From: an uncultured Syntrophaceae bacterium
GTDB lineage: Bacteria > Desulfobacterota > Syntrophia > Syntrophales > PHBD01
Reading direction: 5' to 3'
Assembly (NCBI GenBank): GCA_964558665.1
Contig: CAZLFA010000001.1
Span: forward strand, 52,562-116,561
Length of the DNA stretch: 64,000 bases
A model generated the notes under the pieces. It saw only the letters and a program-made list of their open reading frames with translations, was not told where the DNA came from and did no database searches. This document shows, in pieces, positions 9,771 to 55,391 of the stretch (its first letter is position 1; every line of letters begins with the position of its first letter). The position numbers and the translations under genes were made by a program.

Positions 9771-11614
9771 CAAGGAGAGTTGCCATTAACTCAGAAAACC
9801 AGGCCGAGCAGGAATCATTCTGGGGCGGTGTCATAAAATCCATGGGGCTGGTCTTCGGCGATATCGGTACCAGTCCCATTTATACACTTACCGTTGTCTT
9901 CACGCTGACCAGGCCGACTTACGACAATGTGATGGGGATCCTGTCTCTGGTTGTCTGGACGCTGACGCTCCTTGTTACAGTCGAGTATGCATGGCTTGCC
10001 ATGAGCCTGGACAGGGAAGGTCAGGGCGGCGAGATCATGCTCCGGGAGATCCTTATCAGGCTGCTCAAGTCAGGTAAAGTGATGACTTTTGCCGGTCTGC
10101 TCACCTTTATCGGTGTTTCCCTGCTGCTGGGAGACGGTGTTATCACCCCCGCCATAAGTATCATGTCGGCAGTGGAAGGTCTGCTGCTCATTCCCGGGAT
10201 GGAGGGCCTTCGTCATGAATTTCTTATCGGTGGTGCATCGGTAATTGCGCTTCTTCTTTTCTTTTTCCAGCACAAGGGAACAGATAAGGTGGCCGTAACC
10301 TTCGGTCCTATAATGATGATGTGGTTTCTGGTGCTTGCCGCAGCCGGTATGATTTCCCTTATCGGCATGCCGGAAGTGGTGAAGGCGGTAAACCCTTACT
10401 ATGCCGTCAATTTTCTTTCCAATAACGGTGTGGCCGGATTTCTGGTTCTGTCGGATGTCGTCCTCTGTGCGACAGGCGGTGAGGCCCTTTACGCCGACAT
10501 GGGGCATCTCGGCAAAAAACCCATTATCAGGGCATGGGGTTTTGTGTTCGTCGCCCTTGTCATAAACTATCTGGGGCAAGGTGTTTTCGCCATACAAAAT
10601 CCGGAGGCCAAATTTCTTCTTTTCGGCATGGTGCAGAAACAGGCCCCGTTTCTCTATATACCGTTTCTCATCTTGACCATCACTGCCACGGTGATAGCCT
10701 CGCAGGCTATTATCAGCGGCGTGTTTTCCATCGTGTACCAGGGAATAACAACCAGGCTGATGCCGCTCATGAAGGTTGATTATACATCGAGCAAGATTAA
10801 ATCCCAGATATACATCGGCGCGGTGAACTGGTTTTTGATGATGGCAGTTATTTTAATGATTCTTATTTTCAAGAAATCGGAAAACCTGGCGGCCGCATAC
10901 GGAATGGCGGTTACTGGTTCCATGAGTATTACAGCAATAATGATGCTCATGGTGTTTATCATGACGAAGAACAAATGGAAAATCCCCATAGTTGTAATTG
11001 TCATCCTGATCGACCTTCTCTATCTTTTTTCTACGTTCACTAAAATTCCCCACGGCGCCTACTGGTCGCTTATTCTGGCTTCGATCCCCTTTATCACCAT
11101 CGTGATCTGGACGAACGGCCAGAAGTATCTTTTTCGTTCCCTGCGTCCCCTCGATCTGCAGACATTCCTTGTGGGTTACGAGCAGGTGTACGGCAAGGGG
11201 AAAAATATCAGCGGCACGGCGCTCTTTTTTGCTCGATCATGGCAGATAATTCCTCCCTATATCATTCACTGCATGTTCAGAAGCACGATTATTTACGAGA
11301 AAAATGTATTCATCTGTATCAACAGGACGGAGAAGCCCTTCGGAATGGACACAAGATATGTAAGCGATATCGGCACCGGTTTGGATGCGCTGGAAATAAA
11401 TGCCGGATACAGAGATATGGTGGACCTGGGGGAGATATTGAAGAAACACGGCATTAAAGAGAAGATAATATTCTACGGCGTGGAGGAAATATCAACCAAT
11501 AACCCCGCGTGGCGCATCTTCAGTTTTATTAAAAAGGTTACCCCCAACTTTGTGCAGTTCAATAAAATACCCGCCGCGAAACTGCATGGTGTTGTAACAC
11601 GTGTGGAGATGTAA
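9767..11614 (+). CDS. kup: KUP/HAK/KT potassium transporter
   Basis: GLVFGDIGTSPIY, GDGVITPAIS, TGGEALYADMGH, SQAIISG motifs. Confidence 0.95.
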   Translation: MTRRVAINSENQAEQESFWGGVIKSMGLVFGDIGTSPIYTLTVVFTLTRPTYDNVMGILSLVVWTLTLLVTVEYAWLAMSLDREGQGGEIMLREILIRLLKSGKVMTFAGLLTFIGVSLLLGDGVITPAISIMSAVEGLLLIPGMEGLRHEFLIGGASVIALLLFFFQHKGTDKVAVTFGPIMMMWFLVLAAAGMISLIGMPEVVKAVNPYYAVNFLSNNGVAGFLVLSDVVLCATGGEALYADMGHLGKKPIIRAWGFVFVALVINYLGQGVFAIQNPEAKFLLFGMVQKQAPFLYIPFLILTITATVIASQAIISGVFSIVYQGITTRLMPLMKVDYTSSKIKSQIYIGAVNWFLMMAVILMILIFKKSENLAAAYGMAVTGSMSITAIMMLMVFIMTKNKWKIPIVVIVILIDLLYLFSTFTKIPHGAYWSLILASIPFITIVIWTNGQKYLFRSLRPLDLQTFLVGYEQVYGKGKNISGTALFFARSWQIIPPYIIHCMFRSTIIYEKNVFICINRTEKPFGMDTRYVSDIGTGLDALEINAGYRDMVDLGEILKKHGIKEKIIFYGVEEISTNNPAWRIFSFIKKVTPNFVQFNKIPAAKLHGVVTRVEM

Positions 11615-23369: not shown

Positions 23370-25202
23370 CTACATGAAACTTGCTTCAGGGATGTCGATA
23401 GAGCTGCGGTCGCCGCACTTCATCGACTTCTCATATCCGAAGATATCGGTAACATGATTCATGACATAGAACCTGGCGCTGGCGATTTTGCCCTTGTAGA
23501 AATTGGCATCGAAGTGGTCATCACCCAGTTCTTTGAGCTTCGCGGCCGCCAGGAGAGCCTGGTCGAGCAACAGCATGCCGCAGTAAACTCTCGCGCCTGC
23601 ATGCATGGTACGGGTAGCGAAGAGCTGTTTCATCTGCCTGTCGCCGGTTGTCCAGGCTGCATTCATGTCCACGATATCTTTGAAAGCAACCATGACATCC
23701 GCCATCATTGCGAATTCCGCCGCGAATTCGGCGGTCTTTTTCTTGGCAACGAAGTCGTCGATTTCTGCCACCCACTTCCGGAACGGCGCGCTGTCCTTCA
23801 TGGTGAACTTGCGGCCGGTATAGTCCTGGGCCTGGATGAAGTTCGTGCCTTCCCAGATACCGTAGATCACAACGTCCCGGTACAGCTCCGCCCCGGCATA
23901 CTCTTCCATGAAGCCGTAGCCGCCGTGGCATTGGATCGCCTCCTCGGTTGTGCGCCTGGCCATGTCGGACGCATAGGCTTTGCACAGGGGGTTGTTGATC
24001 GAAAACATGTCGTCATAATAAGCCCTTTCTTCCGGTGTGGCAGCATCCATAGACAGGTCGCGGTAGAGATAGGACTGGTAAATCAACGCCCGGCAGGCCT
24101 CCATAATGGATTTCTGGAACAGCAGCATGCGGCGGACGTCTTCGTGCTCGATGATCCTGACGCTGGGCCCCTTGGGATTGGTGGAGTGCTTGCTCTGCAC
24201 CCGCACCTTCGTATAATCGAGAGCCGCATAATAGGCTGAGCCAATGCATCCCAGGGAGAACAGTCCGGTGTTCAGGCGTTCTTCGTTCATATATGCGAAC
24301 ATCTGCTTCATACCGACACCTTTGCCGTCAACAACCTCTTTTTCGCCTACCATCCAGCCGTAGCAGTTATTGTTCTCACCCATGGCCAGGGTACATGTGG
24401 AAGAACCGTGAATGCCCATTTTGTGCTCAATATTCATGGTAGTTACATCATTCCAGGCACCCACGGAGCCGTCATCGTTGACCCAGAACTTGGGCACCAG
24501 GAAGAGGGAAATGCCGGCGGTGCCTTCTTTGGCGCCCGGGGTCTTGGCCAGCATCAGGTGGATAATGTTTTCCGCCAGGTCATGGTCTCCGGAGGTGATG
24601 AAGCATTTCGTGCCTGTGAGCTTATACTTGCCGGGAGTGTCGGTGGGGAATGCCTTGCTTTGAACCGCGCCGACCTCGGAGCCTGCGCCGGGTTCGGTCA
24701 GGCCCATGGTACCGCACCATTCACCCGATATCATCTTGGGCAGAAACAGGTCCTGCTGCTTTTTGGTGCCATATTCCTGGAGCACGGTGATTGCGCCCTG
24801 GGTCAGACACCAGTACATGACGATCGACGGCGATGCGGCGGTCTGCATTTCCAGGATCGGAGCGTACCAGGTCAGCGGTATTTTGCCTTCGCCGCGGAAA
24901 CCAAACTGCTGTGCTACCGACGCATCCTGGACGGCTTTATAAACTTTCTTGAAAGAGTCCGGTGTGACAACCGCATGTTCATTGCCGCCCACAAACTTCG
25001 CGCCGGGCTCATCGGCATCTTTGTTGGCCGGACACATCACGTCGCGGCAGACTTTATTGTTGACATCGAGAAAATTATCGATGTCGTCAATACCGTAAAA
25101 ATCTTTGTAAGCGTCAAGGGTCAAGAGCTTACCCATGTTGAGCCATTCTTTGATCTGGAACGTGATGTCGCGAGTTTGATACAACCAATTATTATGTGCC
25201 AT
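23370..25202 (-). CDS. Acyl-CoA dehydrogenase (large, about 610 aa, type)
   Basis: MGLTEPGAGS, K.FITSG, EHKMGIHGS.TC, ERL, HGGYGFMEEY, IWEGTN. GGAGG RBS. Confidence 0.95.
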   Translation of the reverse strand: MAHNNWLYQTRDITFQIKEWLNMGKLLTLDAYKDFYGIDDIDNFLDVNNKVCRDVMCPANKDADEPGAKFVGGNEHAVVTPDSFKKVYKAVQDASVAQQFGFRGEGKIPLTWYAPILEMQTAASPSIVMYWCLTQGAITVLQEYGTKKQQDLFLPKMISGEWCGTMGLTEPGAGSEVGAVQSKAFPTDTPGKYKLTGTKCFITSGDHDLAENIIHLMLAKTPGAKEGTAGISLFLVPKFWVNDDGSVGAWNDVTTMNIEHKMGIHGSSTCTLAMGENNNCYGWMVGEKEVVDGKGVGMKQMFAYMNEERLNTGLFSLGCIGSAYYAALDYTKVRVQSKHSTNPKGPSVRIIEHEDVRRMLLFQKSIMEACRALIYQSYLYRDLSMDAATPEERAYYDDMFSINNPLCKAYASDMARRTTEEAIQCHGGYGFMEEYAGAELYRDVVIYGIWEGTNFIQAQDYTGRKFTMKDSAPFRKWVAEIDDFVAKKKTAEFAAEFAMMADVMVAFKDIVDMNAAWTTGDRQMKQLFATRTMHAGARVYCGMLLLDQALLAAAKLKELGDDHFDANFYKGKIASARFYVMNHVTDIFGYEKSMKCGDRSSIDIPEASFM

Positions 25203-25292
25203 TTCGAATCCCTCCTAATTTTGGTTTTTGGTTAACTAACTGCTGCGATGCCATCCAGAGAGGGTTGTCTCAATCAGCTCAAGAAATTCCCC

Positions 25293-26075
25293 TTAACAAC
25301 CCTTGAAATTGGCCTTCCTCTTTTCCAGGAAGGCGGTCATGCCTTCCTTCTGGTCGTCGGTGCTGAAGCACTGGGCGCAGCACTCGGTTTCCAGACGATT
25401 AGCGTTGTCCAGCGACAGGTCATAGCCATAATTTATGGCATGTTTGGCCATCTTCAGTGCAAACCCCGGAAGCCTGGCCATCTTGGCGGCAAACTTTTTC
25501 GTTTCCGCCATAAGCTGATCGGCCGGATAAAGACGATTCACCAGTCCTATTTCATAAGCCCTCTGTGCATTGATTTGATCGCCGCCCATTATGAGTTCCT
25601 TGGCCCTTCCAAATCCCACAAGGCGGGCCAGGCGCTGCGTGCCGCCCCAGCCGGGGATCAATCCGATCAGGATCTCGGGCTGTCCGAAACGGGCGGTTTC
25701 AGAGGCGAATCTCATATCGCACGACATGGAGATTTCCGTGCCGCCGCCAAGCGCGAAGCCGTTGACAGCGGCGATTGACGGTTTCGGCATTGTTTCTATA
25801 AGGCGCAGCGTTTCATGCCCCAGCTCCATAAAAGCCAGGGCTTCCTTTGGCCTCAGATTCTGCATCTCTGAAATGTCAGCGCCTGCAACGAAAGACTTAT
25901 CACCAGCGCCCGTCAACACCAGAACCTTGATACTGTCATCGTTCTTGCAAACCGTAGCCGCCTGCATGAGTTCTGTCATGGTTTCGGAGTTCATCGCGTT
26001 GAGAGCTTTTGGCCGGTTGAAAGTCAATAGCGCGACGCCATCCTCGACCGTAAAGAGAATGTTCTTGTAGTCCAT
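25293..26075 (-). CDS. crt: Short-chain enoyl-CoA hydratase (crotonase)
   Basis: FVAGADI, AVNGFALGGG.E, GQPE..GLIPGWGGTQRL.R. Confidence 0.85.
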   Translation of the reverse strand: MDYKNILFTVEDGVALLTFNRPKALNAMNSETMTELMQAATVCKNDDSIKVLVLTGAGDKSFVAGADISEMQNLRPKEALAFMELGHETLRLIETMPKPSIAAVNGFALGGGTEISMSCDMRFASETARFGQPEILIGLIPGWGGTQRLARLVGFGRAKELIMGGDQINAQRAYEIGLVNRLYPADQLMAETKKFAAKMARLPGFALKMAKHAINYGYDLSLDNANRLETECCAQCFSTDDQKEGMTAFLEKRKANFKGC

Positions 26076-26136
26076 TTGCTCCTTGTCTCCTTTCGTTTTG
26101 GAAATACTGAACTTGAGTTAGTATGATGCAAACAGG

Positions 26137-26166
26137 CCCCTCTCCTGCTTTATAGCAGGAGAGGGG
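26137..26166. promoter_or_regulatory. Perfect 13-bp intercistronic stem-loop between thiolase and crotonase
   Basis: CCCCTCTCCTGCT-TTAT-AGCAGGAGAGGGG, with no strong U-tract on the sense (-) strand. Confidence 0.6.
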
Positions 26167-26199
26167 TAATAACGCTTACTGAGGCCGGATGGAAACCGC

Positions 26200-27489
26200 T
26201 TACGGTTTCTCGAGGATGATGCTCATGCCCTGACCGCCGCCGATGCAGAGAGAGGCGAGCCCGCGCTTGGCGCCTGTTTTGTTCATCTGCATGGCAAGTG
26301 TGTAGGTGATCCTTGCGCCGGTGTTGCCGATGGGGTGACCGATGGAGATACCGCTTCCGTTGAGGTTGCTGCGATTCAGATCGACACCAAGTTCTTTAAT
26401 ACAAGCAAGTGCCTGGACAGCAAAAGCTTCGTTCAGTTCGATCAGATCGATATCCTTCATCGACAGGCCAAGCTTGTTGAAAAGTTTCTTTGTTGCCGGG
26501 ATCGGTCCCAGTCCCATGTATGCCGGATCGACGCCGCCGGAATCATAACCGGTGATCTTGGCCAGAGGCTTCAGACCAAGTTCTTTGGCCTTGTCGCTGC
26601 TCATGACTACAACAGCAGTTGCACCGTCGTTGATGCCCGAGGCGTTGCCCGCTGTAACTGTTCCGGTTTTTTTGAAGACCGGTGGCAGTTTGGCCATCTT
26701 TTCCAGTGTTGTATCCATGGGGCGTTCGTCGACGTTGAACACCTTGGGATCGCCCTTCCTCTGGGGGATGAGAATGGGAACGATTTCGTCCGCTACGGCG
26801 CCGCTGGCAATGGCCGCTCTGGCGCGACGATGGCTCTCATATGCCAGTTTATCCTGCTCTTCCCTGGAAATGCCGTATTTCTCGGCAATGTTTTCCGCCG
26901 TGAAGCCCATGTGGTAACTGTTGAAGATTTCCCAGAGGCCGTCATGAACCATGAGGTCCGTGGCCTGACCGTAGGGCATGTTCATTCTGTAACCCCAGCG
27001 GGCATTGGGCATCGCGTAGGGAACGTTGCTCATGTTTTCCATGCCGCCGGCGACTATGATCTCGGCATCGCCCGCCTTGATGGCCTGTGCCGCCAGGGCA
27101 ATGGCCTTCATTCCCGATGCGCAGACCTTCTGAACGGTAATGACATTGCTTTCTTCAGGCAGACCGGCGAAAATCGCCGCCTGCCGGGGAGGATTCTGGC
27201 CGACTCCGGAAGTCAGGACGTTTCCCATAATGACCTCATCAATGTAAACGGCCTTCAGCGCGCTGTCGTAGTCATAATGCTTCTTCTGAATTTCCGTCAT
27301 ATCGAAATTGCCCAACTGGGCAGGCCGGCATGATTTTATGGCATCCGTGATTGCCGGACGCAGGCCGGCTCTTTTGATCGCCTCTTTGATTACAACTCTA
27401 CCCATCTCCACAACGGAGATTCCCTTTAATGAACCGCCGAATTCTCCGACAGCGGTTCTTGCACCACTTACAATTACTGCATCTCTCAT
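26200..27489 (-). CDS. Acetyl-CoA C-acyltransferase (thiolase)
   Basis: VCASGM, NASGINDGA, NEAFA, GHPIG, CIGGGQG. AGGAG RBS before MRDAVIV. Confidence 0.95.
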   Translation of the reverse strand: MRDAVIVSGARTAVGEFGGSLKGISVVEMGRVVIKEAIKRAGLRPAITDAIKSCRPAQLGNFDMTEIQKKHYDYDSALKAVYIDEVIMGNVLTSGVGQNPPRQAAIFAGLPEESNVITVQKVCASGMKAIALAAQAIKAGDAEIIVAGGMENMSNVPYAMPNARWGYRMNMPYGQATDLMVHDGLWEIFNSYHMGFTAENIAEKYGISREEQDKLAYESHRRARAAIASGAVADEIVPILIPQRKGDPKVFNVDERPMDTTLEKMAKLPPVFKKTGTVTAGNASGINDGATAVVVMSSDKAKELGLKPLAKITGYDSGGVDPAYMGLGPIPATKKLFNKLGLSMKDIDLIELNEAFAVQALACIKELGVDLNRSNLNGSGISIGHPIGNTGARITYTLAMQMNKTGAKRGLASLCIGGGQGMSIILEKP

Positions 27490-27590
27490 CCTGCTATCTC
27501 CTTTCAAAAAAGTTTATGTTTTTTTTAAATTCCTGGTCCTGTTGATGGAGGCCTCGCCAACATCTCATCCGGGAAGTTAAGTGTCGTTTT

Positions 27591-29048
27591 TTATTCATCT
27601 GGAATGGCGTCAACGAACTCCACCTCTCTGGGAATCTTGTATGACGACAGATAGGTGCGGCAGTGCTTCAATATGTCCCTTTCATCCGCTGCGATGTCAG
27701 GGTTTTTGATAATAAAGGCTTTGACGATCTCGCCTCTCATAAGGTCGGGCTGGGATATTATACGAGACTCCTTCACGGCAGGATGCATGCTCAGGACAAT
27801 CTCCACCTCTTTCGGATAGACGTTAAATCCGCTGGTAATAACCATGCGCTTTTTTCTTCCTGTCAGGAAGATGTATCCATCCCGGTCAATGTAACCAAGA
27901 TCACTCGTATGGAGCCAGCCCTCCCTGATGACCTGGGTTGTGGCATCCGGGTCCTTGTAGTAGCCTTTCATGACATTGGGGCCGCGTATGATTAGTTCAC
28001 CGGTTTCTCCGGCGGGCAGATCAACACCTTGGTCGTCAATAATGCGCGCCTCCACACCGGGGATCGGTATTCCTATGGAGCCGGGCTTAAAAGGCATGTC
28101 GAGACGGCTTAAGGCAGTTATGGGAGACGCCTCGGTAAGGCCGTAGCCTTCCAGCAGTTTGACATTGAATTTGGGCGCGAAGACGTTGAATATCTCAACA
28201 TTCATGGCCGAGCCGCCGGTGATGCAGAAGCGCAGAGAACTGATATCATACTGATCAGCCTTGTCATGAAAGAGCATTCCCAGAAAAAGCCTGGGAACGG
28301 CGCAGATGTATGTTACTTTCTCGTTCTGAATGGCGGAGAAGATGGTGTCCAGGGTGAATCTTTCCATGAGCACCGTGCTGGCGCCCGATTTGAGAATGGC
28401 AATCATGTTTGCCGCTGCGCCGAAGGAGTGAAAGAAGGGGATGACGGCCAGCGCCCGGTCGTTTTCATCACCGTCACCCAGGACTTTAAGGAGTGCGGCC
28501 TGGGTCATGAGATTGTTGTGTGTCAGAACGGCGCCCAGAGGTTTGCCCGTAAGTCCCGATGTATAGATCATGACGGCATCGTCGTCACCGTCGATGCCTG
28601 CCGTTTCCAGCTCAAAAGGCCCCTGGTTGACGATGGTCCGGAATTGCGAATCCTCTTTTTCATCCGTCAGGATCAGGTGCTTGCAAAGAGGCAGCCTGTC
28701 TTTGATCTCATCATACCGTCTGGCTGATGATGTTACCGTGATGAAAACCTTTGAGTCGCTGTTATGGAGAAAGTGGTGGAGTTCATAAGGCGTGGACATC
28801 ACGTTGATAGTTACAACAACGGCGCCGATTTTCTGGGCGGCAAAATATGATATGACAAAATCGGGACTGTTGGGAAGCATGATGGATATATGATCACCCT
28901 TGCCTATCCCCAACTTTTTAAGGTGATTTCCCAAGGCGTTGACGGCCCGATTTAATTCTGCATAGGTGATTCTTTTTCCTTCGTGAATGAGAGCAATGCG
29001 TTCCGGAAACCGCGAGCAGCTCTCTTCTATCATGCTCCCTAGGTTCAT
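27591..29048 (-). CDS. Long-chain acyl-CoA synthetase homologue with degenerate catalytic motifs
   Basis: Adenylate-forming fold (GYGLTE, GELIIRGPNVMKGY, NVYP.EVE), but P-loop YTSGLTGKPLG, TSDLG, GRKKR, and it ends at DAIPDE without the terminal GK motif. Confidence 0.8.
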   Translation of the reverse strand: MNLGSMIEESCSRFPERIALIHEGKRITYAELNRAVNALGNHLKKLGIGKGDHISIMLPNSPDFVISYFAAQKIGAVVVTINVMSTPYELHHFLHNSDSKVFITVTSSARRYDEIKDRLPLCKHLILTDEKEDSQFRTIVNQGPFELETAGIDGDDDAVMIYTSGLTGKPLGAVLTHNNLMTQAALLKVLGDGDENDRALAVIPFFHSFGAAANMIAILKSGASTVLMERFTLDTIFSAIQNEKVTYICAVPRLFLGMLFHDKADQYDISSLRFCITGGSAMNVEIFNVFAPKFNVKLLEGYGLTEASPITALSRLDMPFKPGSIGIPIPGVEARIIDDQGVDLPAGETGELIIRGPNVMKGYYKDPDATTQVIREGWLHTSDLGYIDRDGYIFLTGRKKRMVITSGFNVYPKEVEIVLSMHPAVKESRIISQPDLMRGEIVKAFIIKNPDIAADERDILKHCRTYLSSYKIPREVEFVDAIPDE

Positions 29049-29179
29049 CGCATACAGCCCTTTCCTATAATGCCGCCAGTTTATCCCATGAAAGGCATTT
29101 TTTTTCAACAGAATAATTGACTAAAAGGAACCGCTCCCGAGCGAAGATATTAACCTGTTTATGCTTGCTGTTCCGGTTC

Positions 29180-33896: not shown

Positions 33897-35219
33897 TCAG
33901 ACTTTGCATCCCGCGATAAAATGCCGCACATTGACGCGGCGGCTGATGTTGAGCGCCAGCAGTTGAAGGATGTCATTCTGCCCGCTCAGCACTCTTCTGC
34001 CTATGGATGAAAGAGAATAGAACTTTCTGTAAAAATCCATATATCCCTGAAACAATTGATTGACGGTCATTTTCAGCGGTTGAAATACTACATGGTTGGT
34101 GTCGTAATAACGCCAGTTTTTGTGGAGAAGCCGGCCTTCGCTTTCCATGCGGTCGAAGAGCTGAGTTCCCGGAAGAGGGGTAAGGATATAGAAATTAGCA
34201 CCGGCGATACGGTTGCTTACGCAAAAATCATAAATGTTATGAAATGCCTTTGTATCGTCATTGTCCATGCCAAAAATAAAGGACCCGAAGATATGTATTC
34301 CCGTTTTTTGAATGGCGGCAATAGCCTCCTCATATTCGGTTACGCGATTAAGGTTGTGCTTGCCCATGGCCTTGAGATTTTCCCGATTGGTTGTTTCCAT
34401 GCCGACAAAAATCCACTTACAGCCGGCTCGCACAGCCAGGTCCAGCAGCTCCCTGTCTCTTGACAGGCGGAGATCTCCCTGGCCGTACCAGTTGCGCTTC
34501 AGGGGGATCATGGCTTTAAACAGTTCCTTGGCGCGCTCCGGATGACCGAACATATTGTCATCGATAAAGATAATGTCACCCGGGGGCATGGATTTCATTT
34601 CTTCGATCACTTCTTCCACAGGGCGGAAGCGAAATTTGTTTCCCCAGAAATGGGTTACGGAACAGTATTGACAGCGATGGGGACAGCCGCGTGCAGTCTC
34701 CATGACATTGTAGAAGGTGTAAGCCCCCGGCTTCAGCAGATCCAGGCGCGGCCTGGGCAATCCTTCAAGGGTGTGCAGTTTTTCAGATTTGTATATCTTT
34801 TCCATTTTGCCGGACAGAAAGTGGCCCAGCAGGTTGTCCCATGAGTATTCCGCTTCTCCTATTACCAGGGCGTCCGCGTGCGGCGCCGCCTCTTCAGGCA
34901 TGAAGAAGGCATGGATGCCGCCGATGGCTACGGCGGTTCCCTTCCGGCGGAAGGTGTCGGCGATTTCGTAACCGCGCATGGCGGTCGGCGTCATGATGCT
35001 TATGCCGACCAGATCGGCCGCAGCGTTGAAGTCTATGTCCTCCACGTTTTCATCGATGATCCGGACATCGAACCTGTCGTCTGCATGCGCGGCAAGCAAA
35101 GGCAGATTAAGCTGCGGGACCGACGATCTGGTTCGTCTTCTCAGTCCCAGACGATCCTTGTCGGCTGCAGGGTGGATCAGAAGCAGCCCGGGTTTGGAGG
35201 ATCTTTTATTGTCTGTCAA
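33897..35219 (-). CDS. B12-binding domain radical SAM protein
   Basis: N-terminal cobalamin-binding region (IGGIHA), RGCPHRCQYC, DDN, G.ET, FIFG.D.D, TPLPGT. Confidence 0.9.
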   Translation of the reverse strand: MTDNKRSSKPGLLLIHPAADKDRLGLRRRTRSSVPQLNLPLLAAHADDRFDVRIIDENVEDIDFNAAADLVGISIMTPTAMRGYEIADTFRRKGTAVAIGGIHAFFMPEEAAPHADALVIGEAEYSWDNLLGHFLSGKMEKIYKSEKLHTLEGLPRPRLDLLKPGAYTFYNVMETARGCPHRCQYCSVTHFWGNKFRFRPVEEVIEEMKSMPPGDIIFIDDNMFGHPERAKELFKAMIPLKRNWYGQGDLRLSRDRELLDLAVRAGCKWIFVGMETTNRENLKAMGKHNLNRVTEYEEAIAAIQKTGIHIFGSFIFGMDNDDTKAFHNIYDFCVSNRIAGANFYILTPLPGTQLFDRMESEGRLLHKNWRYYDTNHVVFQPLKMTVNQLFQGYMDFYRKFYSLSSIGRRVLSGQNDILQLLALNISRRVNVRHFIAGCKV

Positions 35220-47367: not shown

Positions 47368-47600
47368 AAGAAGCCCCTCCCATTATCCCGGAGTATGCAA
47401 TAGAACGTACAGACACTTGGATAAGTGAATACTATCCCGGTCAAAGGGGTTTTCAAGCGGCGAATCAAATATTTTTCTTGTGAAAAATATTCTGAGCCGC
47501 GGAAAGCCTTTTTGACCAGAATGCCAGAGGGTATTACTTTTTTATCGCGTAATCCTGGATACTCTTTCGGTATTTGATTGCAGGGACCAGATAAAAACTA

Positions 47601-47676: not shown

Positions 47677-48492
47677 TTATTTTTTACCCAATTCCTTTGA
47701 TCTCAAGGTGGCTGCTTCAACGGCCGCCATGAGAGTGCCCCGAAGCCTGCCTTCCTCAAGCTCCTTGATTCCGGCGATAGTGGTTCCTCCGGGAGAGGTT
47801 ACCATGTCTTTAAGTTCTCCGGGATGCTTGTTGCCGGTCAGATAGAGCTTTGCGGAACCCAGCATGGTTTGTGCAGCCAGTTTCAAGGCGATGTCTCTGC
47901 TCAGCCCCATCCTGACGCCGCCGTCCGCGAGAGCTTCTATCATGATGAAAAAATATGCCGGTCCGCTGCCGCTGAGTCCGGTCACGGTATCAATCAGATC
48001 CTCTTTGACAACGACGGAAGAACCGACGGCATTGAATATAAGACCGGCGATTTCAAGATCATCGTCAGATGCCTTGTCGCTTTTCGCCAGGGCGGCTATT
48101 CCTTCCCCCACAAGCGCCGGAGTGTTGGGCATGGTGCGGATGATGCGCATCCCTTTCTTCAGATGATCCTCGATGAATTTGATGGCAATGCCTGCCGCTA
48201 TGGAGATGACGATTTTGGTTTTGTCTATGGCGGGAGATATTGCCGTGAGTATCTCGGCCATGTTCTGCGGTTTGACCGCCAGAATGATCAGGTCGCACTC
48301 TCTTGCTGTCTTGAGATTGTCGGACGTGGTCCTGACATGATAAAGCCCCTCCAGCTCTTTCAGCCTTTTTGCATCCACATCCGATATCATAATATCCTTA
48401 GCGGGGATCAAATTTTTCGACACAATGCCGCCTAGTAAAGCCCCCCCCATTTTTCCTCCGCCGATAAATCCTAATTTCTTCCCCTTCAGCAT
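47677..48492 (-). CDS. proC: Pyrroline-5-carboxylate reductase
   Basis: GFIGGGKMG, LAVKPQ, SIAAG, R.MPNTP, SGSGPAY, V.SPGGTTI.G. Confidence 0.95.
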   Translation of the reverse strand: MLKGKKLGFIGGGKMGGALLGGIVSKNLIPAKDIMISDVDAKRLKELEGLYHVRTTSDNLKTARECDLIILAVKPQNMAEILTAISPAIDKTKIVISIAAGIAIKFIEDHLKKGMRIIRTMPNTPALVGEGIAALAKSDKASDDDLEIAGLIFNAVGSSVVVKEDLIDTVTGLSGSGPAYFFIMIEALADGGVRMGLSRDIALKLAAQTMLGSAKLYLTGNKHPGELKDMVTSPGGTTIAGIKELEEGRLRGTLMAAVEAATLRSKELGKK

Positions 48493-48708
48493 AGAGATCC
48501 CTCCTTTATGAAAGTGTCCTGCCATAACCTTAAAAAATACGGCAGACAATGAACCTTTAGCAAAAACCCCTTTTAATTGTGGAGGTTATATTTCATTGTT
48601 TCCTGCCTTATGTCAATATGATTCTTTTGCGATGCATCAATAATTCTTGACAACAGAGTGATATCAATTTTACATACCTGCTGAAAAATAAGCGTAAAGG
48701 GAGGCCTT

Positions 48709-50148
48709 ATGAAACTCATATTTGAAAAGAGTCGCCCCGGCCGAACGCCATCTTCAATTCCCTCCAGCGATGTGCCTGAAATCGATATCGGACAGCTTAT
48801 TGATTCCCGGTTGCTCAGAGATGATGTCGATCTGCCGGAGGTTGCCGAGATTGATCTTGTCAGGCATTATATGAGCCTCTCCAGGAGAAATTTCGGCGTC
48901 GACATCGGTTTCTATCCGCTTGGTTCCTGCACAATGAAGTATAATCCCAAAATCAATGAAGACATTGCCAAATTTGAAGGTTTCACAGCGTTGCATCCCT
49001 ATGTGCCCGATGAATTTGCGCAGGGAAACCTCAGGCTGATGTATGAATTGAGACGGCACTTAAGCGAGATATTCGGTATGGCCGACTTTACGCTGCAGCC
49101 GGCGGCCGGCGCTCATGGGGAGCTGACCGGCATTATGATGTTCAAGAAATACTTCGAGACCAGAGGAGAAAAGCGCACCCGGATTCTTATTCCGGATGCC
49201 GCTCACGGCACCAATCCGGCCTCCGGGGCTTTGTGCGGTTATCAGACGGTTACCGTGCGTTCAAACAAGGAAGGCGGTGTTGATGTAGGCCACCTGGATG
49301 ACGTGATGACGGATGATGTCGCCGGCCTGATGCTGACCAATCCGAACACGCTGGGTCTGTTTGAGCGCAATATAGAAAAAGTTGCAGCAATAATCCATGA
49401 CCGGGGAGGCCTCTTTTATTGTGACGGAGCCAATGCCAACGCCTTTATGGGGATAACGAGGCCGGGGGACCTGGGATTCGATGTTATCCAGCTGAACCTG
49501 CATAAAACTTTTTCAACCCCCCATGGCTGCGGCGGACCGGGGAGCGGCCCGGTAGGCGTCGGGGAAACACTCGTTCCTTTTCTTCCGGTGCCGCGCGTGA
49601 TTGAGAAAGCCGGGAACTACTCATGGAATTATCAATATCCTTACAGCATCGGCCGCGTCAGGGCCTTCTTCGGGAATTTCAACGTCATGGTCAAGGCCTT
49701 TGCCTACATCAGGTCGCTCGGCCCTGAAGGCCTGAGAAAGGCCAGTGAGACGGCCGTTCTCAATGCCAACTATATCAAGGAAAAGCTCAAACCGTGGTAT
49801 GATCTTCCTTATGACCGCGTCTGCATGCATGAATGCGTATTTTCCGGGACGCGCCAGGTGAAAGAATCGGGCATTCATACGACAGACATAGCAAAACGGC
49901 TGCTTGATTACGGATACCATCCGCCTACCATTTATTTTCCGCAAATCGTTCCGGAGGCAATTATGATCGAGCCCAACGAGACAGAGAGCAAAGAGACAAT
50001 AGATTCGTTCTGTGAAGCGATGATAGCCATTGCCGGGGATGCCAGGGATAATCCGGAGCTTGTCCGGAATGCGCCGCTGACAACGCCGGTGAGACGGCTG
50101 GATGAGGTAAAAGCGGCTCGTGAACCCGACGTTTGCTGGCGGGGATAA
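48709..50148 (+). CDS. gcvPB: Glycine dehydrogenase (decarboxylating) subunit 2
   Basis: [42 protein letters not shown] (PLP Lys), PPT.YFP, IEP.ETE. Confidence 0.95.
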
Positions 50149-50180
50149 TCCAGACGTTCCTAAATGAATAAGGTGCATAT

Positions 50181-51995
50181 ATGAAGAATCTTGTTGCTGT
50201 TTCGAAGGAAGAACTGGTTGAGAGGCTCTGGAATGCCGATTCGCGACTCTTCAAAATGCTTCGCGACTCGAAACACGTGGAAGAGGCAAGACATCTGCTG
50301 TTCGATTACTTCAATTATCTGGACCGCTCGATGTTCAACATGAAGCCCGACACCTTTTTTTCCAAGATGAACATCATTCAGAAAAGAAACGCCAAGGAAT
50401 GTATAAGGGTCTTTGCCAACACCATCAGGACGGAAAACGAATTCCTGACCAAGTCCTCTCCGCTGCAATTGCTTTGCGATCTTGCTCAGAAAAAGCCGGG
50501 TGCCCTGGATCGGGTTTCGCATGCCTTTTTATGCGAATACATAGCATTCTTTTACGGGATTACAGGAAAGGCAGGAAAGCATCTTAAAAGCCAGGATCTT
50601 TTTCAAATGAAAGATGGCCGGGAAGCGGCAATAATACGCTCAGACCAGTTGGATGAGTATGCTGCAACCATCCGTAAATATTACCGCCGTTACAAAACAG
50701 GCTTCAGCCGCACCATCAGCAGGAAAAGGGAAACGCTGAAAAAGGAGATTTTGAGTTTCTTTAACGGCAGCGACGACGACTGGCAGGACTATATTTGGCA
50801 TTACCGCCACATTATAAAGGACATCAAAACCCTTTCCGCGCTGGTGACTCTGGAAAAAGACGAACTGGAAGGGCTGCAGGCCGCCGAACAGAATAATATA
50901 CCATTCGAAATCACTCCTTATTATCTGTCTCTCTTCAATAAGGAGGGGCGGGCGGACTTTGACAGGCAGATACGGGCGCAGGTTATACCCAGCTTACGCT
51001 ATTGTCAGGGTGTTGCGGAAAGCCGCAAACAGGGCATTGACATGGACTTCATGGGGGAGAAGTCAACGAGCCCCATTGACGGCATCACCAGGCGCTACCC
51101 GGAGATTGTCATTCTCAAGCCTTATAATTCCTGTCCTCAGATATGCGTCTATTGCCAGCGCAACTGGGAAATCAAGAGCATGGATGATGATGTGCAGATG
51201 AGCCGTGAAAAGGTGAAGGAAGCCATTGCCTGGATTAATGCTCATGACACTATTGCAGAGGTGTTGATTACAGGCGGTGATCCCCTTACCCTGAGCAATG
51301 AATATCTCGACTGGCTCATCGGCGAAATAGCCGCAATAAAGCATGTGGAGAGAATAAGGATCGGCACGCGGGTTCCGGTTACCGTGCCTTTCCGGATCAA
51401 TGAAGGGTTCATTGACATCCTGAACAAATATCACCAGTGGGGTAAAAGGGAGATCGCCATCGTCACCCACTTTGAACATCCGTCGGAAGTGACTCACGAT
51501 GTGCAGAAGGCTGTCGAGAGATTGAAAAAAGCAGGGATAAATGTTTACAACCAGCAGGTCTTTACATATTACAACAGCCGCAAGTTTGAAACGTGCCTCT
51601 TAAGAAGGGTGCTTAAGGTATCCGGTATAGATCCATATTACTCCTTCAGCAGCAAGGGCAAGGAAGAGACGATAGATTTCCGGGTTCCTATCGCCAGAAT
51701 CGAGCAGGAAAGAAGCGAAGAGGCAAGGCTTCAGCCCGGCCTGATGAGAACGGATGAACCGGTCTTCAATCTCCCCAAGCTCGGCAAATCCAATCTGAGG
51801 GCGTGGCAGGATCACGAGGTTATCATGATTCTTCCCGACGGCCGGCGGGTCTACCGTTTCTATTCCTGGGAAGTCAGGCTCGTGACGGCGCTCGACTATC
51901 TTTACACGGATGTCCCTATATACGAATATCTGAAGCGTTTGGACGCCGACGGCGAAAACATAAACGACTACAGCACTATTTGGTACTACTTCTAA
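50181..51995 (+). CDS. KamA-family radical SAM aminomutase-like protein, long form (604 aa)
   Basis: ITPYY, I.R.YP, CPQICVYCQR, TGGDPL, RIGTR.P, HF.HP.E, NQQV, PYY.F. Confidence 0.9.
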   Translation: MKNLVAVSKEELVERLWNADSRLFKMLRDSKHVEEARHLLFDYFNYLDRSMFNMKPDTFFSKMNIIQKRNAKECIRVFANTIRTENEFLTKSSPLQLLCDLAQKKPGALDRVSHAFLCEYIAFFYGITGKAGKHLKSQDLFQMKDGREAAIIRSDQLDEYAATIRKYYRRYKTGFSRTISRKRETLKKEILSFFNGSDDDWQDYIWHYRHIIKDIKTLSALVTLEKDELEGLQAAEQNNIPFEITPYYLSLFNKEGRADFDRQIRAQVIPSLRYCQGVAESRKQGIDMDFMGEKSTSPIDGITRRYPEIVILKPYNSCPQICVYCQRNWEIKSMDDDVQMSREKVKEAIAWINAHDTIAEVLITGGDPLTLSNEYLDWLIGEIAAIKHVERIRIGTRVPVTVPFRINEGFIDILNKYHQWGKREIAIVTHFEHPSEVTHDVQKAVERLKKAGINVYNQQVFTYYNSRKFETCLLRRVLKVSGIDPYYSFSSKGKEETIDFRVPIARIEQERSEEARLQPGLMRTDEPVFNLPKLGKSNLRAWQDHEVIMILPDGRRVYRFYSWEVRLVTALDYLYTDVPIYEYLKRLDADGENINDYSTIWYYF

Positions 51996-52015
51996 GATTC
52001 AGGTGTTACAGATAA

Positions 52016-52930
52016 ATGCAACCCCCCGGATCATTGCCTATAAAGCGTCCGTTGCGCAAACCCGCCTGGCTTAAAGTCCGGCTGCCGGGAACGGCGGAAA
52101 CCGGGAAGGTCAAGGCCGTCTTATCGCGTCATCATCTCCACTCCATATGCCAAGAGGCGCGTTGTCCGAATATCGCGGAGTGTTTCCAGGAAGGAACGGC
52201 AACCTTCCTCATCCTGGGCAATATCTGCACCCGCAACTGTCTCTACTGCAACGTACTGCATGATAAACCGCAAGCACCGGACTATTCGGAAGCTGAACAC
52301 CTGGTTGCCGCAGTGCGTGAGCTGGCGCTGAAATATATTGTCATCACCTCGGTAACCAGAGATGATCTGGATGATGGGGGGGCGCATGTGTTTGCCGGAT
52401 GCGTGGAAGGATTGCGCACTAATGTAAGGGATTGCCGGGTGGAGGTTCTGGTGCCTGATTTTATGGGTAGTCATTCGGCTCTGGACAGGGTCATGGCCGC
52501 CGGACCGGATGTGCTCAATCACAACCTGGAAGTGGTCCCCTCCCTCTTCAAAAACCTCCGGCCTCAGGGGGATTACCGTCGTTCGCTCAATTTGCTGCAT
52601 CACGCAAAGAGCCGTGGAGGAATGATTATAAAATCGGGGTTCATGATCGGATTTGGCGAAAACGGCCGGGATATAGAACATCTTCTGAATGATTTACTGG
52701 ATGCAGGTTGTGATCATCTCACCATCGGTCAGTATCAGCAGCCTACGCAACGTCACTTTCCCGTGGCCAAATATTATCACCCGGACGAATTTGCCTCCTT
52801 GAAAGAATCAGCTCTGAATATGGGGTTCAGCTATGTTGAAGCAGGGCCTCTCGTGCGCAGTTCCTACCATGCCGCCAGAGCGGCGCAGCACGCGGCATCA
52901 AAGAAATGTGAGAGGATGTCGAATGGGTAG
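52016..52930 (+). CDS. lipA: Lipoyl synthase
   Basis: CQEARCPNIAEC (CX4CX5C), CTRNCLYC, NHNLE.V, VRSSY. Confidence 0.95.
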   Translation: MQPPGSLPIKRPLRKPAWLKVRLPGTAETGKVKAVLSRHHLHSICQEARCPNIAECFQEGTATFLILGNICTRNCLYCNVLHDKPQAPDYSEAEHLVAAVRELALKYIVITSVTRDDLDDGGAHVFAGCVEGLRTNVRDCRVEVLVPDFMGSHSALDRVMAAGPDVLNHNLEVVPSLFKNLRPQGDYRRSLNLLHHAKSRGGMIIKSGFMIGFGENGRDIEHLLNDLLDAGCDHLTIGQYQQPTQRHFPVAKYYHPDEFASLKESALNMGFSYVEAGPLVRSSYHAARAAQHAASKKCERMSNG

Positions 52931-53008
52931 CGATTCCTGTGCGGATTGACCGCGTGCCCAGGGTTTTTTTTGATGCTTCTGTCAAGCCCGAGAACGACTT
53001 TGACAGGA

Positions 53009-53701
53009 TCAAGGCTTCTTCTCGCTGATTGCTCCCAGTATCTTTTCGTTAATGGATTTGGGATTGATGAGCTTTTCAATCGCGTCGGTGACGGCGTTGT
53101 TCACCTCGATGCTCAGATGCGTTCTCAGATCATCTTCGGTCATGTTCACATCCGAGCGACTGGATTCTCCCAGTACGCGGTAGGTATGAATAATCGCTGA
53201 TTTCTGAACATCTGCAAGTGCTAGGCTCAGAGTAACGCGTGTTTTATATGTGGCCTTGATATTGGCTTTCTCGCAGGTTATTTCAAAGCTTTCAATATTG
53301 CCGCCGATGACAATTCTGCCCCAGTTCTTGCTGATGCCGGCCGGTTTTGTGTCCCAGGCTGGAGAAGAATTGAGTAAGGTGTATCCTGCTCTTGACATGT
53401 AGGATTTTACACCTGATGAGACTGCTTCCGCAGGTGTGGTGTTGATGACAAAAATGGGAAGCTTTTCGCCTCCTGTTTTGATTACCGCTCCCACAACATT
53501 CTTATCGGCAAGTGTACGTATGTCGTTGAAAACCGCAATCGTTATTGGTATGCCCTTGATCTGGTCGCCTGCCGGGGTGACGTTCCTCACCGGTTCGGTG
53601 GTCATGCTGACGGCATAGCGCGTTACCGGCGTACATGCCGCAGTCGATATAACCGCAATGATTGCGATAAATATAATCAATCCCGTGCGTGCTCTTTGCA
53701 T
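53009..53701 (-). CDS. Putative lipoprotein (YajG-like)
   Basis: Signal peptide ending STAAC. A F.DIR motif follows. Confidence 0.6.
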   Translation of the reverse strand: MQRARTGLIIFIAIIAVISTAACTPVTRYAVSMTTEPVRNVTPAGDQIKGIPITIAVFNDIRTLADKNVVGAVIKTGGEKLPIFVINTTPAEAVSSGVKSYMSRAGYTLLNSSPAWDTKPAGISKNWGRIVIGGNIESFEITCEKANIKATYKTRVTLSLALADVQKSAIIHTYRVLGESSRSDVNMTEDDLRTHLSIEVNNAVTDAIEKLINPKSINEKILGAISEKKP

Positions 53702-54035
53702 TGTTTCTTTTCTCCCCTTGAGTTTCCTGATGCCGCTATGATTTACTCTCTTGCTTGACGGATGTCAAGAATTGAGAGGCCCTTTTCATTGACATGAGAG
53801 TTTTGTCATGAAAGAATAACGGAAAAACAATTAGGATGATTTTATACAGGATGACGCGATAAAAGTAATACTCGTGGGCACCCCGGTCAAAGAAGCTTTC
53901 CGCGGCTCGGAATATTTTTCACAAAAAAAATATTTGATTCGCCGCTTGAAAACCTTTTTGACCGAGATAATATTCACTTATCCAAGTGCCTGTATGTTCT
54001 ATTGCGTAATCCGGGTTTATGTATTGGAGATGGAG

Positions 54036-55391
54036 ATGCCTGAAAAATATGATCTGATAGTCATCGGCGGCGGTCCCGGAGGACATGCCGCTGCGCTTCA
54101 TGCCGCGAGCCTGGGAGCAGGTGTTGCGATAATAGAGAATCAGGGATGGGGCGGTACCTGCACTAATCGGGGTTGTGTGCCGACCAAGGCTTTGCTTGCC
54201 TGCAGCGGTCACTATGCGCAACTGAAAAAAATAAAGCGTCTGGGCATATCAGCAGGAGAAACTTCGTTTGTTTTTGCAGCAATGAAGCGCCACCAGAAAC
54301 AGATGGTGACAGTATCTGCCCTTGGTGCAGAAAAGAGCCTCAAGGACGTGGGGGTGACGGCGATTCGCGGCAATGCGCAGTTGCTTGATCCGTATAATGT
54401 CAAATACGAAACATCGGAAGGCAACGGAGAAATACTGAAAGCATCGAAGATAGTCATCGCGTGGGGATCGGAAACCAGCCTTCCTCCCGGTATCAATATT
54501 TCTGAGAGAGTGCTGACGTCGGACGGCATGCTGGCGCTGGAGAACCTGCCGTCAAGCGTGATCATTGTCGGCGGCAGCGTCATCGGTTTTGAATTTGCCA
54601 CGTTTCTTGCGGAACTGGGAGTAAAGGTTACGGTAATCGAATTGCTGGAGCGCCTTCTTCCCACCGAGGACAAGGAGGCGGCCGATATGCTGTGCAAGGA
54701 GGTGCAGCGTCTGGGGGTGAGTCTCCATGCGGCAACATATGCCAGGGAGATTCGCGAAACGTCAGACGGGGTTGTCATGACCGTAAATTCCGGCGGCAAA
54801 GTTGAAAAAGAGCTGGCCGCTGAGTATGCCCTGATATGTACGGGCAGAAAACCCCGCCTGAGGACTGAAGAACTGGATCGATGCGGTATCGGCTACGGAC
54901 GGACGGGAATCACCGTTGATGCAAATCAGATGACCAGTGCGGAAGGTGTTTATGCAGTAGGTGATGTTACGGGCGGCATTATGCTGGCGCACCGGGCTGC
55001 TCATCAGGGAAAGGCCGTTGCCGATCGGCTTTTTGGAGACGGTGCGGTCGCTTATCGGGATGAAGCCGTTCCCTCTGTCATCTACACACATCCGCAGCTT
55101 GCGCGTGTAGGATTAACGGAAACACAGGCGGCTGAAAGGGGGCTGAAGGTAGAGATCATACGGTCGGAATACGGCGCCAACATCATGGCGCGGGCGGAAC
55201 TGCAGGGAAGCGGCTTTGTAAAACAGCTTTTCCACAACAATAAGCTGATCGGCGCGTCCATTGTCGGTGATCAGGCGGGAGAACTCATTTCCTCACTCAG
55301 TCTTGCCGTTGCGGCAGGAATGGCTAAGAGGGATTTGAAATCCTGGATAATACCGCATCCGACGCTAAGCGAATTGCTGAATCAGGATTAG
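54036..55391 (+). CDS. lpdA: Dihydrolipoyl dehydrogenase
   Basis: GGGPGG, GGTCTNRGCVPTK, GGSVIG.E, YAVGDV, LAH.A, HPTLSE. Confidence 0.9.
   Translation: MPEKYDLIVIGGGPGGHAAALHAASLGAGVAIIENQGWGGTCTNRGCVPTKALLACSGHYAQLKKIKRLGISAGETSFVFAAMKRHQKQMVTVSALGAEKSLKDVGVTAIRGNAQLLDPYNVKYETSEGNGEILKASKIVIAWGSETSLPPGINISERVLTSDGMLALENLPSSVIIVGGSVIGFEFATFLAELGVKVTVIELLERLLPTEDKEAADMLCKEVQRLGVSLHAATYAREIRETSDGVVMTVNSGGKVEKELAAEYALICTGRKPRLRTEELDRCGIGYGRTGITVDANQMTSAEGVYAVGDVTGGIMLAHRAAHQGKAVADRLFGDGAVAYRDEAVPSVIYTHPQLARVGLTETQAAERGLKVEIIRSEYGANIMARAELQGSGFVKQLFHNNKLIGASIVGDQAGELISSLSLAVAAGMAKRDLKSWIIPHPTLSELLNQD

Follow-up and report, generated by a model that had tools for sequence, protein, structure and literature searches.

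A putative glutamate-type 2,3-aminomutase of a long-form KamA subfamily is encoded between gcvPB and lipA in a clade of Syntrophales

We analyzed a 64-kb stretch of DNA (hereafter, the window) from an uncultured Syntrophaceae bacterium (GTDB PHBD01; contig CAZLFA010000001.1), in which a gene of the KamA family of radical S-adenosylmethionine (SAM) enzymes is lodged between gcvPB, encoding a glycine dehydrogenase subunit, and the lipoyl synthase gene lipA. The open reading frames (ORFs) of the window were assigned to families by Pfam and NCBIfam profile scans, and the surroundings of kamA were compared in 80 genome loci encoding a relative of the long KamA, with neighbors scored within ±7 kb. 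The explanation that we find best, and consider rather probable, is that this gene specifies an N-extended, ~600-aa, glutamate-type 2,3-aminomutase co-transcribed with canonical genes of the glycine cleavage system (GCS) and of lipoate synthesis; the association would be clade-specific and the enzyme independent of lipoate. A previous inspection of the letters alone (the sequence-only reading) had instead envisaged a new lipoate-dependent amino-acid pathway, a proposal largely unsupported by the comparison, as the same KamA family occurs elsewhere without GCS or lipoate neighbors.

Membership of the window KamA in its family is evident from the score with TIGR00238 (315 bits over residues 189-535, cutoff 199). 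The best specific NCBIfam model was that of glutamate 2,3-aminomutase, Glu_2_3 (TIGR04368; 262 bits over residues 147-504, cutoff 650), followed by the lysine model TIGR03820 (221 bits, cutoff 525), the arginine model (172 bits, below its cutoff), and TIGR03821, which describes the EF-P beta-lysylation enzyme EpmB (140 bits, cutoff 369). True AblAs score far higher with the lysine than with the glutamate model, the reverse of what the window protein does (221 vs 262 bits). Because all values with the specific models fall far under the equivalog cutoffs, we take the long KamA to be a distinct subfamily. The sequence-only reading was thus right in that this is no ordinary short lysine or glutamate 2,3-aminomutase, since the protein stays under every equivalog cutoff and carries a family-specific N-terminal domain. 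At E<=1e-20, 5190 database proteins match it, a count that includes other KamA-family proteins; the best 120 of these matches are all long forms of ~600 aa.

The window KamA is related to lysine 2,3-aminomutase (LAM; 2A5H) by both phmmer (E=4e-44) and Foldseek (E=2e-19, 27% identity), its structure being an AlphaFold2 prediction with a confidence (pLDDT) of 80.7. Residues were mapped by alignment to 2A5H and genuine AblAs, and their invariance was scored over 53 homologs. Conserved in all 53 are C318/C322/C325, aligned with LAM C125/C129/C132; R327, aligned with the alpha-carboxylate binder Arg134; and K536, the counterpart of the pyridoxal 5'-phosphate (PLP) lysine Lys337, within a GK motif that aligns with GGGGK of AblA. 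Equivalents of the LAM phosphate-binding arginines are likewise present and invariant in these homologs. By contrast, both lysine-binding aspartates of LAM are replaced: K492 takes the place of Asp293 (K in 39/53, M in 7, Q in 7) and N530 that of Asp330 (53/53), while K494, beside K492, is also invariant (53/53). In LAM, the two aspartates bind the epsilon-ammonium group of lysine, and the radical-SAM/PLP mechanism of this enzyme is established. Lysine plus asparagine at the Asp293 and Asp330 positions is said to have been reported by Ruzicka and Frey in 2007 as the signature of glutamate 2,3-aminomutase. Members of the family with only 41-44% identity still carry the motifs PYYxFNxKGK and FNVPxxGK, and the C-terminus, which is conserved and ends in IWYYF, is without the zinc-binding Cys motif found there in the short enzymes.

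Conservation of the catalytic residues leads us to infer aminomutase chemistry for the long KamA. The reduced [4Fe-4S] cluster held by C318/C322/C325 would cleave SAM to the 5'-deoxyadenosyl radical, which would take the C3 hydrogen from a substrate bound as external aldimine with PLP released from K536; the amino group would then shift from C2 to C3 via an azacyclopropylcarbinyl radical, and the hydrogen would be returned. R327 would hold the alpha-carboxylate, and K492/K494 together with N530 would bind the distal carboxylate. As for the substrate, the exchange of the two aspartates for Lys and Asn, the scores with the models, and the genomic surroundings described below suggest a free alpha-amino acid of acidic character; the most probable candidate is L-glutamate, which would be converted to beta-glutamate.

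The most distinctive part of the protein is its N-terminal extension, of ~145 aa with respect to the bacterial glutamate 2,3-aminomutase model and ~185 aa with respect to LAM. The first ~190 aa are confidently predicted by AlphaFold2 as all-helical (pLDDT mostly above 85) and are conserved in the 53 homologs, with W17, R37, C74, R76, E85, E119, G126, G129, R153, S154, and D158 invariant. No Pfam family matched this domain and no fold relative was found in the PDB (best E=0.7); among 1.84 billion proteins, it matched 108 representatives, mostly fragments or ~600-aa members of the same family. Three divergent relatives, P0281 (657 aa), P0317 (926 aa), and P0330 (899 aa), contain the domain and show no CxxxCxxC; in the latter two, it occupies residues ~310-500 and is preceded by additional N-terminal sequence. 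Such proteins may have arisen from the long-KamA family by fusion or as derivatives that are no longer radical SAM enzymes.

A conserved 190-aa domain with no fold or sequence relatives outside the family also lends some weight to a different assignment, in which the long KamA acts on another substrate (2-aminoadipate, an N-acyl, phospho, or neutral amino acid) or catalyzes a non-aminomutase radical reaction, the N-terminal domain recruiting a macromolecule. Scores under the cutoff of every characterized equivalog, variation of position 492 among K, M, and Q, and a conserved C-terminus of its own in place of the zinc-binding Cys motif of LAM/AblA all fit such an assignment. We nonetheless regard it as unlikely, given that the PLP lysine, the carboxylate-binding arginine, and the equivalents of the phosphate-binding arginines are invariant, that the Asp-to-Lys and Asp-to-Asn replacements agree with the pattern reported for the glutamate enzyme, and that the gene often stands alone, as would suit an enzyme converting an abundant metabolite in a single step.

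Homology searches placed the closest KamA homologs and loci in Syntrophales metagenome-assembled genomes (MAGs). The nearest relative, chromosome OY764159.1 (L001), encodes a KamA 82% identical to that of the window and has in common with it the order cimA-tsaC-rng-proC(-)-gcvPB-kamA-lipA-lpd-fadD. The lipA gene follows kamA directly in 30 of the 80 loci, and gcvPB lies 5' of kamA in 26, either immediately adjacent (22) or with 5-6.6 kb of inserted genes (4); even in these four, the kamA-lipA adjacency is kept. At least 16 related Syntrophales loci show the full order gcvT-gcvH-gcvPA-gcvPB-kamA-lipA(-lpd). Since ~30 species-level Syntrophales genomes share this gene order, it does not reflect chance, and its frequency (kamA-lipA in 30/80 loci, gcvPB upstream in 26) makes it likely that, in this clade, the genes of glycine cleavage and lipoate synthesis are co-expressed with the aminomutase. 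All GCS/lipA-linked KamAs form one monophyletic Syntrophales clade in a neighbor-joining KamA tree, which argues that the kamA-lipA association arose a single time, in a clade of ~30 species. None of the remaining 49 loci has GCS or lipoate genes within the scored distance; they come from bacteria (the sister Syntrophales clade, Ignavibacteria/Chlorobiota, Omnitrophota, Elusimicrobia, Anaerolineales, and Poribacteria) and archaea (Methanocella, Methanoperedens, ANME-2, and several DPANN lineages). Conservation of the adjacency across phyla, which the sequence-only reading had put forward as a check, was therefore not observed.

Two observations from the same set of loci are of a different kind. 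The kamA gene of L065 (10001-11745) and the lpd genes of L012 (4261-5399) and L064 (13313-14495) each appeared as two adjacent tblastn segments, which suggests frameshifts, from assembly errors or pseudogenes in the MAGs. A methyltransferase (cluster c10), located 3' of kamA in Methanoperedens and 3' of lipA in some Syntrophales, was considered as a partner, and this lead was dropped: with just 28-30% identity between them over ~120 aa, the two groups have a fold in common without being orthologs.

GcvPB, LipA, and Lpd, encoded around kamA, all exceed their equivalog cutoffs and look canonical. GcvPB reaches 735 bits with NF003346 (cutoff 441), aligns over its full length with Thermus thermophilus GcvPB (1WYT_B, residues 5-468; 511 bits), and has the PLP lysine K266 within LHKTF. 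LipA scores 352 bits with TIGR00510 (cutoff 310) and contains both Fe-S motifs, the auxiliary CX4CX5C from C45 and the radical-SAM CX3CX2C from C71, and Lpd scores 419 bits with TIGR01350 (cutoff 409) and has the redox-active CTNRGC. By these sequence criteria, they are the P-protein beta subunit, the lipoyl synthase for the H-protein cofactor, and the E3/L-protein, respectively. The sequence-only reading had drawn attention to the glycine-rich loop of GcvPB, and the loop does read PHGCGGPG (aa 271-278, nt 49519-49542; Cys274 at nt 49528-49530), departing by a single Gly-to-Cys change from the PHGGGGPG of the solved bacterial (1WYT_B) and human P-proteins. However, of the 19 readable GcvPBs of relatives, 17 have Cys at this position, whereas L001 has Gly and L013 has Ser within an unchanged gene order. 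We thus rejected the loop Cys as a functional marker; it appears to be a variable lineage trait.

Absence of gcvPA, gcvT, and gcvH from the window, also claimed at the outset, held in tblastn searches with the GcvT, GcvH, and GcvPA of relative L003, and Pfam annotation revealed no further lipoate or glycine-cleavage genes among the remaining large ORFs of the window. What did not hold is the conclusion that gcvPB is an orphan, since at least 16 relatives have gcvT-gcvH-gcvPA directly 5' of gcvPB-kamA-lipA. The proC(-)|gcvPB junction occurs only in the window and in its closest relative, L001, and in other relatives gcvPA stands at this place, which argues for a local rearrangement, with proC in place of gcvT-gcvH-gcvPA and marking the breakpoint, rather than for a primitive stand-alone subunit. 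A homology search with L003 GcvPA returned no protein of the window contig or the L001 chromosome among the matches listed (best 120). The window locus would accordingly correspond to the downstream half of an ancestral cluster of Syntrophales, gcvT-gcvH-gcvPA-gcvPB-kamA-lipA-lpd; a rearrangement in the lineage shared by the window and L001 would have split gcvPB-kamA-lipA from gcvT-gcvH-gcvPA, and the window would also have received, before lpd, insertions of a lipoprotein gene and of a repeat element. The presence of kamA between gcvPB and lipA would go back to a single ancestral insertion kept by co-transcription. Nothing unusual is implied for glycine cleavage itself, the apparently solitary subunit and the Cys loop being lineage quirks.

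These data bear on the coupling originally proposed, according to which the aminomutase is tied to the glycine-cleavage/lipoyl system, either supplying a beta-amino acid to a GcvPB-containing decarboxylase with lipoyl-H-protein or modifying a GCS component. The tight spacing of 32 and 20 nt, the recurrence of gcvPB-kamA-lipA in ~26-30 Syntrophales species, the persistence of the kamA-lipA pair where 5-6.6 kb separate gcvPB from kamA, and the unusual loop Cys in most of these genomes are all compatible with such a tie. We judge it very improbable, though: the adjacency arose once and is missing from all other lineages that carry this enzyme, although the protein is 50-63% identical there and its active-site residues are unchanged; the loop Cys gives way to Gly in L001, whose gene order does not differ, and to Ser in L013; GcvPB, LipA, and Lpd are canonical; and relatives possess a complete ordinary gcvTHPAPB set. 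To our knowledge, moreover, characterized KamA-family enzymes all act on free amino acids.

The contexts of long kamA outside the GCS-linked clade are informative on its probable function. In Methanoperedens, the gene lies directly 3' of ablA-ablB (L054, 7831-11812), in the order ablA-ablB-MscS-long kamA (L056, 6136-11501), or in the order ablA-ATP-grasp (PurD-like)-EctA-like GNAT-long kamA (L049, 6834-11812), where the replacement of ablB by the ATP-grasp and GNAT genes may reflect a different solute derived from a beta-amino acid. The ablA and ablB genes serve synthesis of the osmolyte N-epsilon-acetyl-beta-lysine. Further Methanoperedens loci encode an Na+/H+ exchanger 5' of long kamA (so annotated in L038 and belonging to the same protein cluster in L045), and a TrkH K+ transporter adjoins it in Methanocella (annotated in L036) and DPANN archaea (same protein cluster in L039 and L040). 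In a woesearchaeal DPANN locus (L043, 3993-13070), kamA-kamB-kamC-kamD-kamE precede the long kamA, which is followed by a class III aminotransferase gene. That set comprises kamA, the reactivase genes kamB/kamC, and those for the alpha and B12-binding beta subunits of lysine 5,6-aminomutase; a complete lysine-aminomutase set is an unexpected metabolic capacity for a DPANN archaeon. None of the non-GCS contexts has to do with lipoate; each relates to free amino acids, which serve as compatible solutes or are catabolized. The placement of the family beside osmolyte, ion-transport, and amino-acid-catabolism genes argues for an aminomutase of free amino acids that is independent of lipoate.

Both eam and ablA, for beta-glutamate and beta-lysine, respectively, are treated as osmoprotectant genes (PMC9337991), and methanogens use beta-glutamate, an anion paired with K+, as a compatible solute (PMC1224877). 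A glutamate 2,3-aminomutase newly discovered in archaea was reported by Tunckanat et al. (Biochemistry 2022, 61:1077). That enzyme is reportedly MmarC7_1783 of Methanococcus maripaludis C7, with an N-terminal extension of ~160 aa. The long KamA family is under-annotated, and the archaeal enzyme would probably be its already described prototype. We infer that the physiological role of the long KamA is synthesis of a compatible solute and/or the first step of amino-acid catabolism, the archaeal contexts favoring the former and the Syntrophales contexts and low-salt habitat the latter.

The Syntrophales contexts in question are those of the sister clade (L022-L034), where genes of a TAXI-type tripartite ATP-independent periplasmic (TRAP) transporter and of the PF19328 family, that of 2,4-diaminopentanoate dehydrogenase, lie directly 5' of long kamA, the last gene of the unit. 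In L022, L025-L029, L031, and L034, this unit consists of a TAXI-family TRAP solute receptor, a DUF1850-like small protein, a fused TRAP permease, the PF19328 protein, and the long KamA, and it spans coordinates ~4.6-11.8 kb in each locus. It represents a candidate operon for amino-acid uptake and catabolism via a beta-amino acid. An ADP-forming acyl-CoA synthetase (cluster c6) is encoded near kamA in both Syntrophales clades; in L008 of the GCS-linked clade, it is inserted together with a CoA-transferase between gcvPB and kamA, and the same protein clusters recur in L007 and L009.

This arrangement raises the possibility, which we hold to be clearly the lesser one, that the Syntrophales long KamA is not an osmolyte synthase and opens a fermentation of acidic amino acids, co-expressed with glycine cleavage as a regulon for amino-acid scavenging. 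Glutamate would be converted to beta-glutamate and, by a dehydrogenase, to 3-oxoglutarate, followed by cleavage at the CoA level with ATP formation through the ADP-forming acyl-CoA synthetase. Besides the TAXI-TRAP and PF19328 genes immediately upstream of kamA in the sister clade and the c6 synthetase and CoA-transferase just mentioned, the location of the L043 long KamA amid lysine-fermentation genes and an aminotransferase, the low-salt habitat, and a preprint in which bacterial glutamate 2,3-aminomutase is stated to serve glutamate fermentation speak for this option. On the other hand, the window operon has no dehydrogenase, transporter, or thiolase partner, the steps beyond beta-glutamate are hypothetical, and the archaeal contexts point to osmoadaptation. 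In its boldest form, to which we assign little probability, the long KamA may found an undescribed glutamate fermentation made up of TAXI-TRAP uptake, the 2,3-aminomutase, a beta-amino-acid dehydrogenase resembling the 2,4-diaminopentanoate enzyme, and CoA-level cleavage with ATP formation by an ADP-forming acyl-CoA synthetase, and in Syntrophaceae wired into the glycine-cleavage/lipoate operon as a single unit of amino-acid catabolism. A still more radical version would have the KamA product or its N-terminal domain in direct interaction with the P- or H-protein system.

Several points weigh against the glutamate-type, lipoate-independent aminomutase that we prefer. The TIGR04368 score is far under its cutoff, K492 is not invariant (K/M/Q), and no Methanococcus protein figured among the listed matches to the window KamA or to the divergent family member P0344. 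The host derives from wastewater, biogas-fermenter/digester, and sediment metagenomes, not obviously high-salt, and an older review mentions nuclear magnetic resonance evidence in some methanogens against a glutamate aminomutase route. Finally, an adjacency that is stable across ~30 species suggests selection for co-expression, so that a functional tie to the GCS and lipoate is conceivable. If our preferred assignment is true, a large and highly conserved family currently labeled 'lysine 2,3-aminomutase' or 'KamA family protein' would make beta-glutamate or a related beta-amino acid. Horizontal transfer would have carried it between anaerobes of both domains, among them syntrophs, methanotrophic archaea, and DPANN, and it would provide a genetic marker for beta-glutamate production outside the Methanococcales. 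The Syntrophales TRAP/dehydrogenase operon also hints that beta-amino acids may be catabolized, and the clade-specific joining of the aminomutase with the glycine-cleavage/lipoate operon is a mild curiosity.

Coordinates of the features at the locus are collected in Table 1.

Table 1. Genes, protein regions, and DNA elements around the long kamA gene of the window
Feature	Position (nt)	Strand	Basis or remark
Palindromic repeat copy A, ~170 nt	47388..47560	-	intergenic
proC, pyrroline-5-carboxylate reductase	47677..48549	-	TIGR00112, 292 bits; divergent neighbor 5' of gcvPB
gcvPB, glycine dehydrogenase (aminomethyl-transferring) subunit 2	48709..50148	+	NF003346, 735 bits
Long-form KamA-family radical SAM/PLP aminomutase (putative), 604 aa	50181..51995	+	TIGR00238, 315 bits
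KamA N-terminal domain, family-specific, predicted all-helical, aa 1-190	50181..50750	+	
KamA CxxxCxxC [4Fe-4S]/SAM motif C318/C322/C325, then R327	51132..51161	+	2A5H alignment
KamA substrate/PLP determinants (predicted) K492, K494, N530, K536	51654..51788	+	alignments with 2A5H and L049 AblA
lipA, lipoyl synthase	52016..52930	+	TIGR00510, 352 bits; NF004019, 378 bits
Hairpin + U8, terminator-like	52925..52971	+	just 3' of lipA stop; faces convergent lipoprotein gene
Putative lipoprotein, 230 aa	53009..53701	-	signal peptide + lipobox ...ISTAAC
Palindromic repeat copy B, ~170 nt	53853..54022	+	just 5' of lpd
lpd, dihydrolipoyl dehydrogenase (E3/L-protein)	54030..55391	+	TIGR01350, 419 bits

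The position of gcvPB as first gene with proC divergent upstream and the gaps of 32 nt (gcvPB-kamA), 20 nt (kamA-lipA), and ~1.1 kb (lipA to lpd) were found as initially described. A strong Shine-Dalgarno sequence (GGGAGG) precedes gcvPB, and the co-transcribed unit in the window is probably gcvPB-kamA-lipA, closing at the hairpin plus U8 (52925..52971). This hairpin folds at −15.1 kcal/mol with z=0.08, that is, an energy no better than that of shuffled sequences, and was thus graded as terminator-like only rather than as an intrinsic terminator. In public RNA data, one metatranscriptome run contained just four very small contigs with partial matches to gcvPB and the beginning of kamA. Riboswitch control of the operon was rejected, since no riboswitch (glycine, Na+, c-di-AMP) or other Rfam control element was detected in the 44-58 kb region of the window (E<=1), in 7 GCS-type loci, or in 8 stand-alone related loci.

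The ~1.1-kb stretch between lipA and lpd contains an overlooked minus-strand gene for a putative lipoprotein of 230 aa (53009-53701; MQRARTGLIIFIAIIAVISTAAC...). This protein had no Pfam or NCBIfam match and no tblastn match in the 80 related loci, and the lipA-lpd gap in L001 is only 77 nt. Given the intervening minus-strand gene, lpd appears to lie outside the gcvPB-kamA-lipA transcription unit of the window and to be separately transcribed. The lpd ORF opens at 53874, the TIGR01350 match begins at residue 58 of this long ORF, and the real start is most likely 54030/54036 (MEMPEKYDLIVIGGGPGG); a promoter-like TTGACA-17-AAGAAT is found 5' of the gene, at 53789-53817.

The two repeat copies are inverted, 91% identical over 131 nt, and bracket proC-gcvPB-kamA-lipA and the lipoprotein gene. 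The repeat can form a long hairpin (z=−4.3 to −4.6). In metagenome runs X1 and X3, contig depth over copy B was 926-1338 vs ~8-12 on either side, and this is also where many contigs end. Both features suggest an element resembling repetitive extragenic palindromes or miniature inverted-repeat transposable elements, with on the order of 100 copies per genome-equivalent. No copy was found in the 80 related loci, nor does the repeat match an Rfam family. One contig of run X1 joins window positions 47554 and 54015 on opposite strands; the 6.4-kb segment between the inverted repeats could be inverted in part of the population, or the join could equally be an assembly-graph artifact at the repeat. 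Elsewhere in the window there are genes for an acyl-CoA dehydrogenase, an enoyl-CoA hydratase, a thiolase, and an AMP-dependent ligase (23370-29108, minus strand), a beta-oxidation-type group typical of syntrophic fatty-acid degraders, together with a radical SAM gene with a B12-binding domain (33897-35219, minus strand) and one for a Kup K+ transporter (9767-11614).

Compared with known systems, the window KamA resembles the archaeal enzyme that is reportedly MmarC7_1783, with which it would share a long, helical N-terminal extension (~145-185 aa) on a KamA-family radical SAM enzyme, substrate-binding residues of the glutamate type, and a family distribution in methanogens and methanotrophic archaea near ablA/ablB, MscS, and TrkH genes; the window gene differs in being bacterial, within a glycine-cleavage/lipoate operon, and from a wastewater/digester host. 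Eam of Clostridium difficile (TIGR04368) provides the best specific model and, according to the reported signature, would have the same Lys/Asn pair at the Asp293/Asp330 positions, but the window protein scores 262 bits instead of the 650 of the cutoff, has the extra ~145-aa N-terminal domain, and ends in a different C-terminus. With the lysine 2,3-aminomutases (Clostridium subterminale KamA, 2A5H, and archaeal AblA) it has in common the fold, CxxxCxxC, the PLP lysine, the Arg134 equivalent, and the phosphate-binding arginines, whereas Asp293 and Asp330 are replaced and the C-terminal CxCxxC zinc site is missing; genuine ablA shares a locus with long kamA in Methanoperedens, and therefore the two would not be redundant. 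Lastly, the locus matches a canonical gcvT-gcvH-gcvPA-gcvPB operon with lipA and lpd in its equivalog-level GcvPB, LipA, and Lpd and in the complete sets, in the usual order, of its relatives, and it departs from that operon in the aminomutase gene between gcvPB and lipA, in the detachment of the gcvT-gcvH-gcvPA half in the window, and in the splitting off of lpd by an inserted gene and a repeat.

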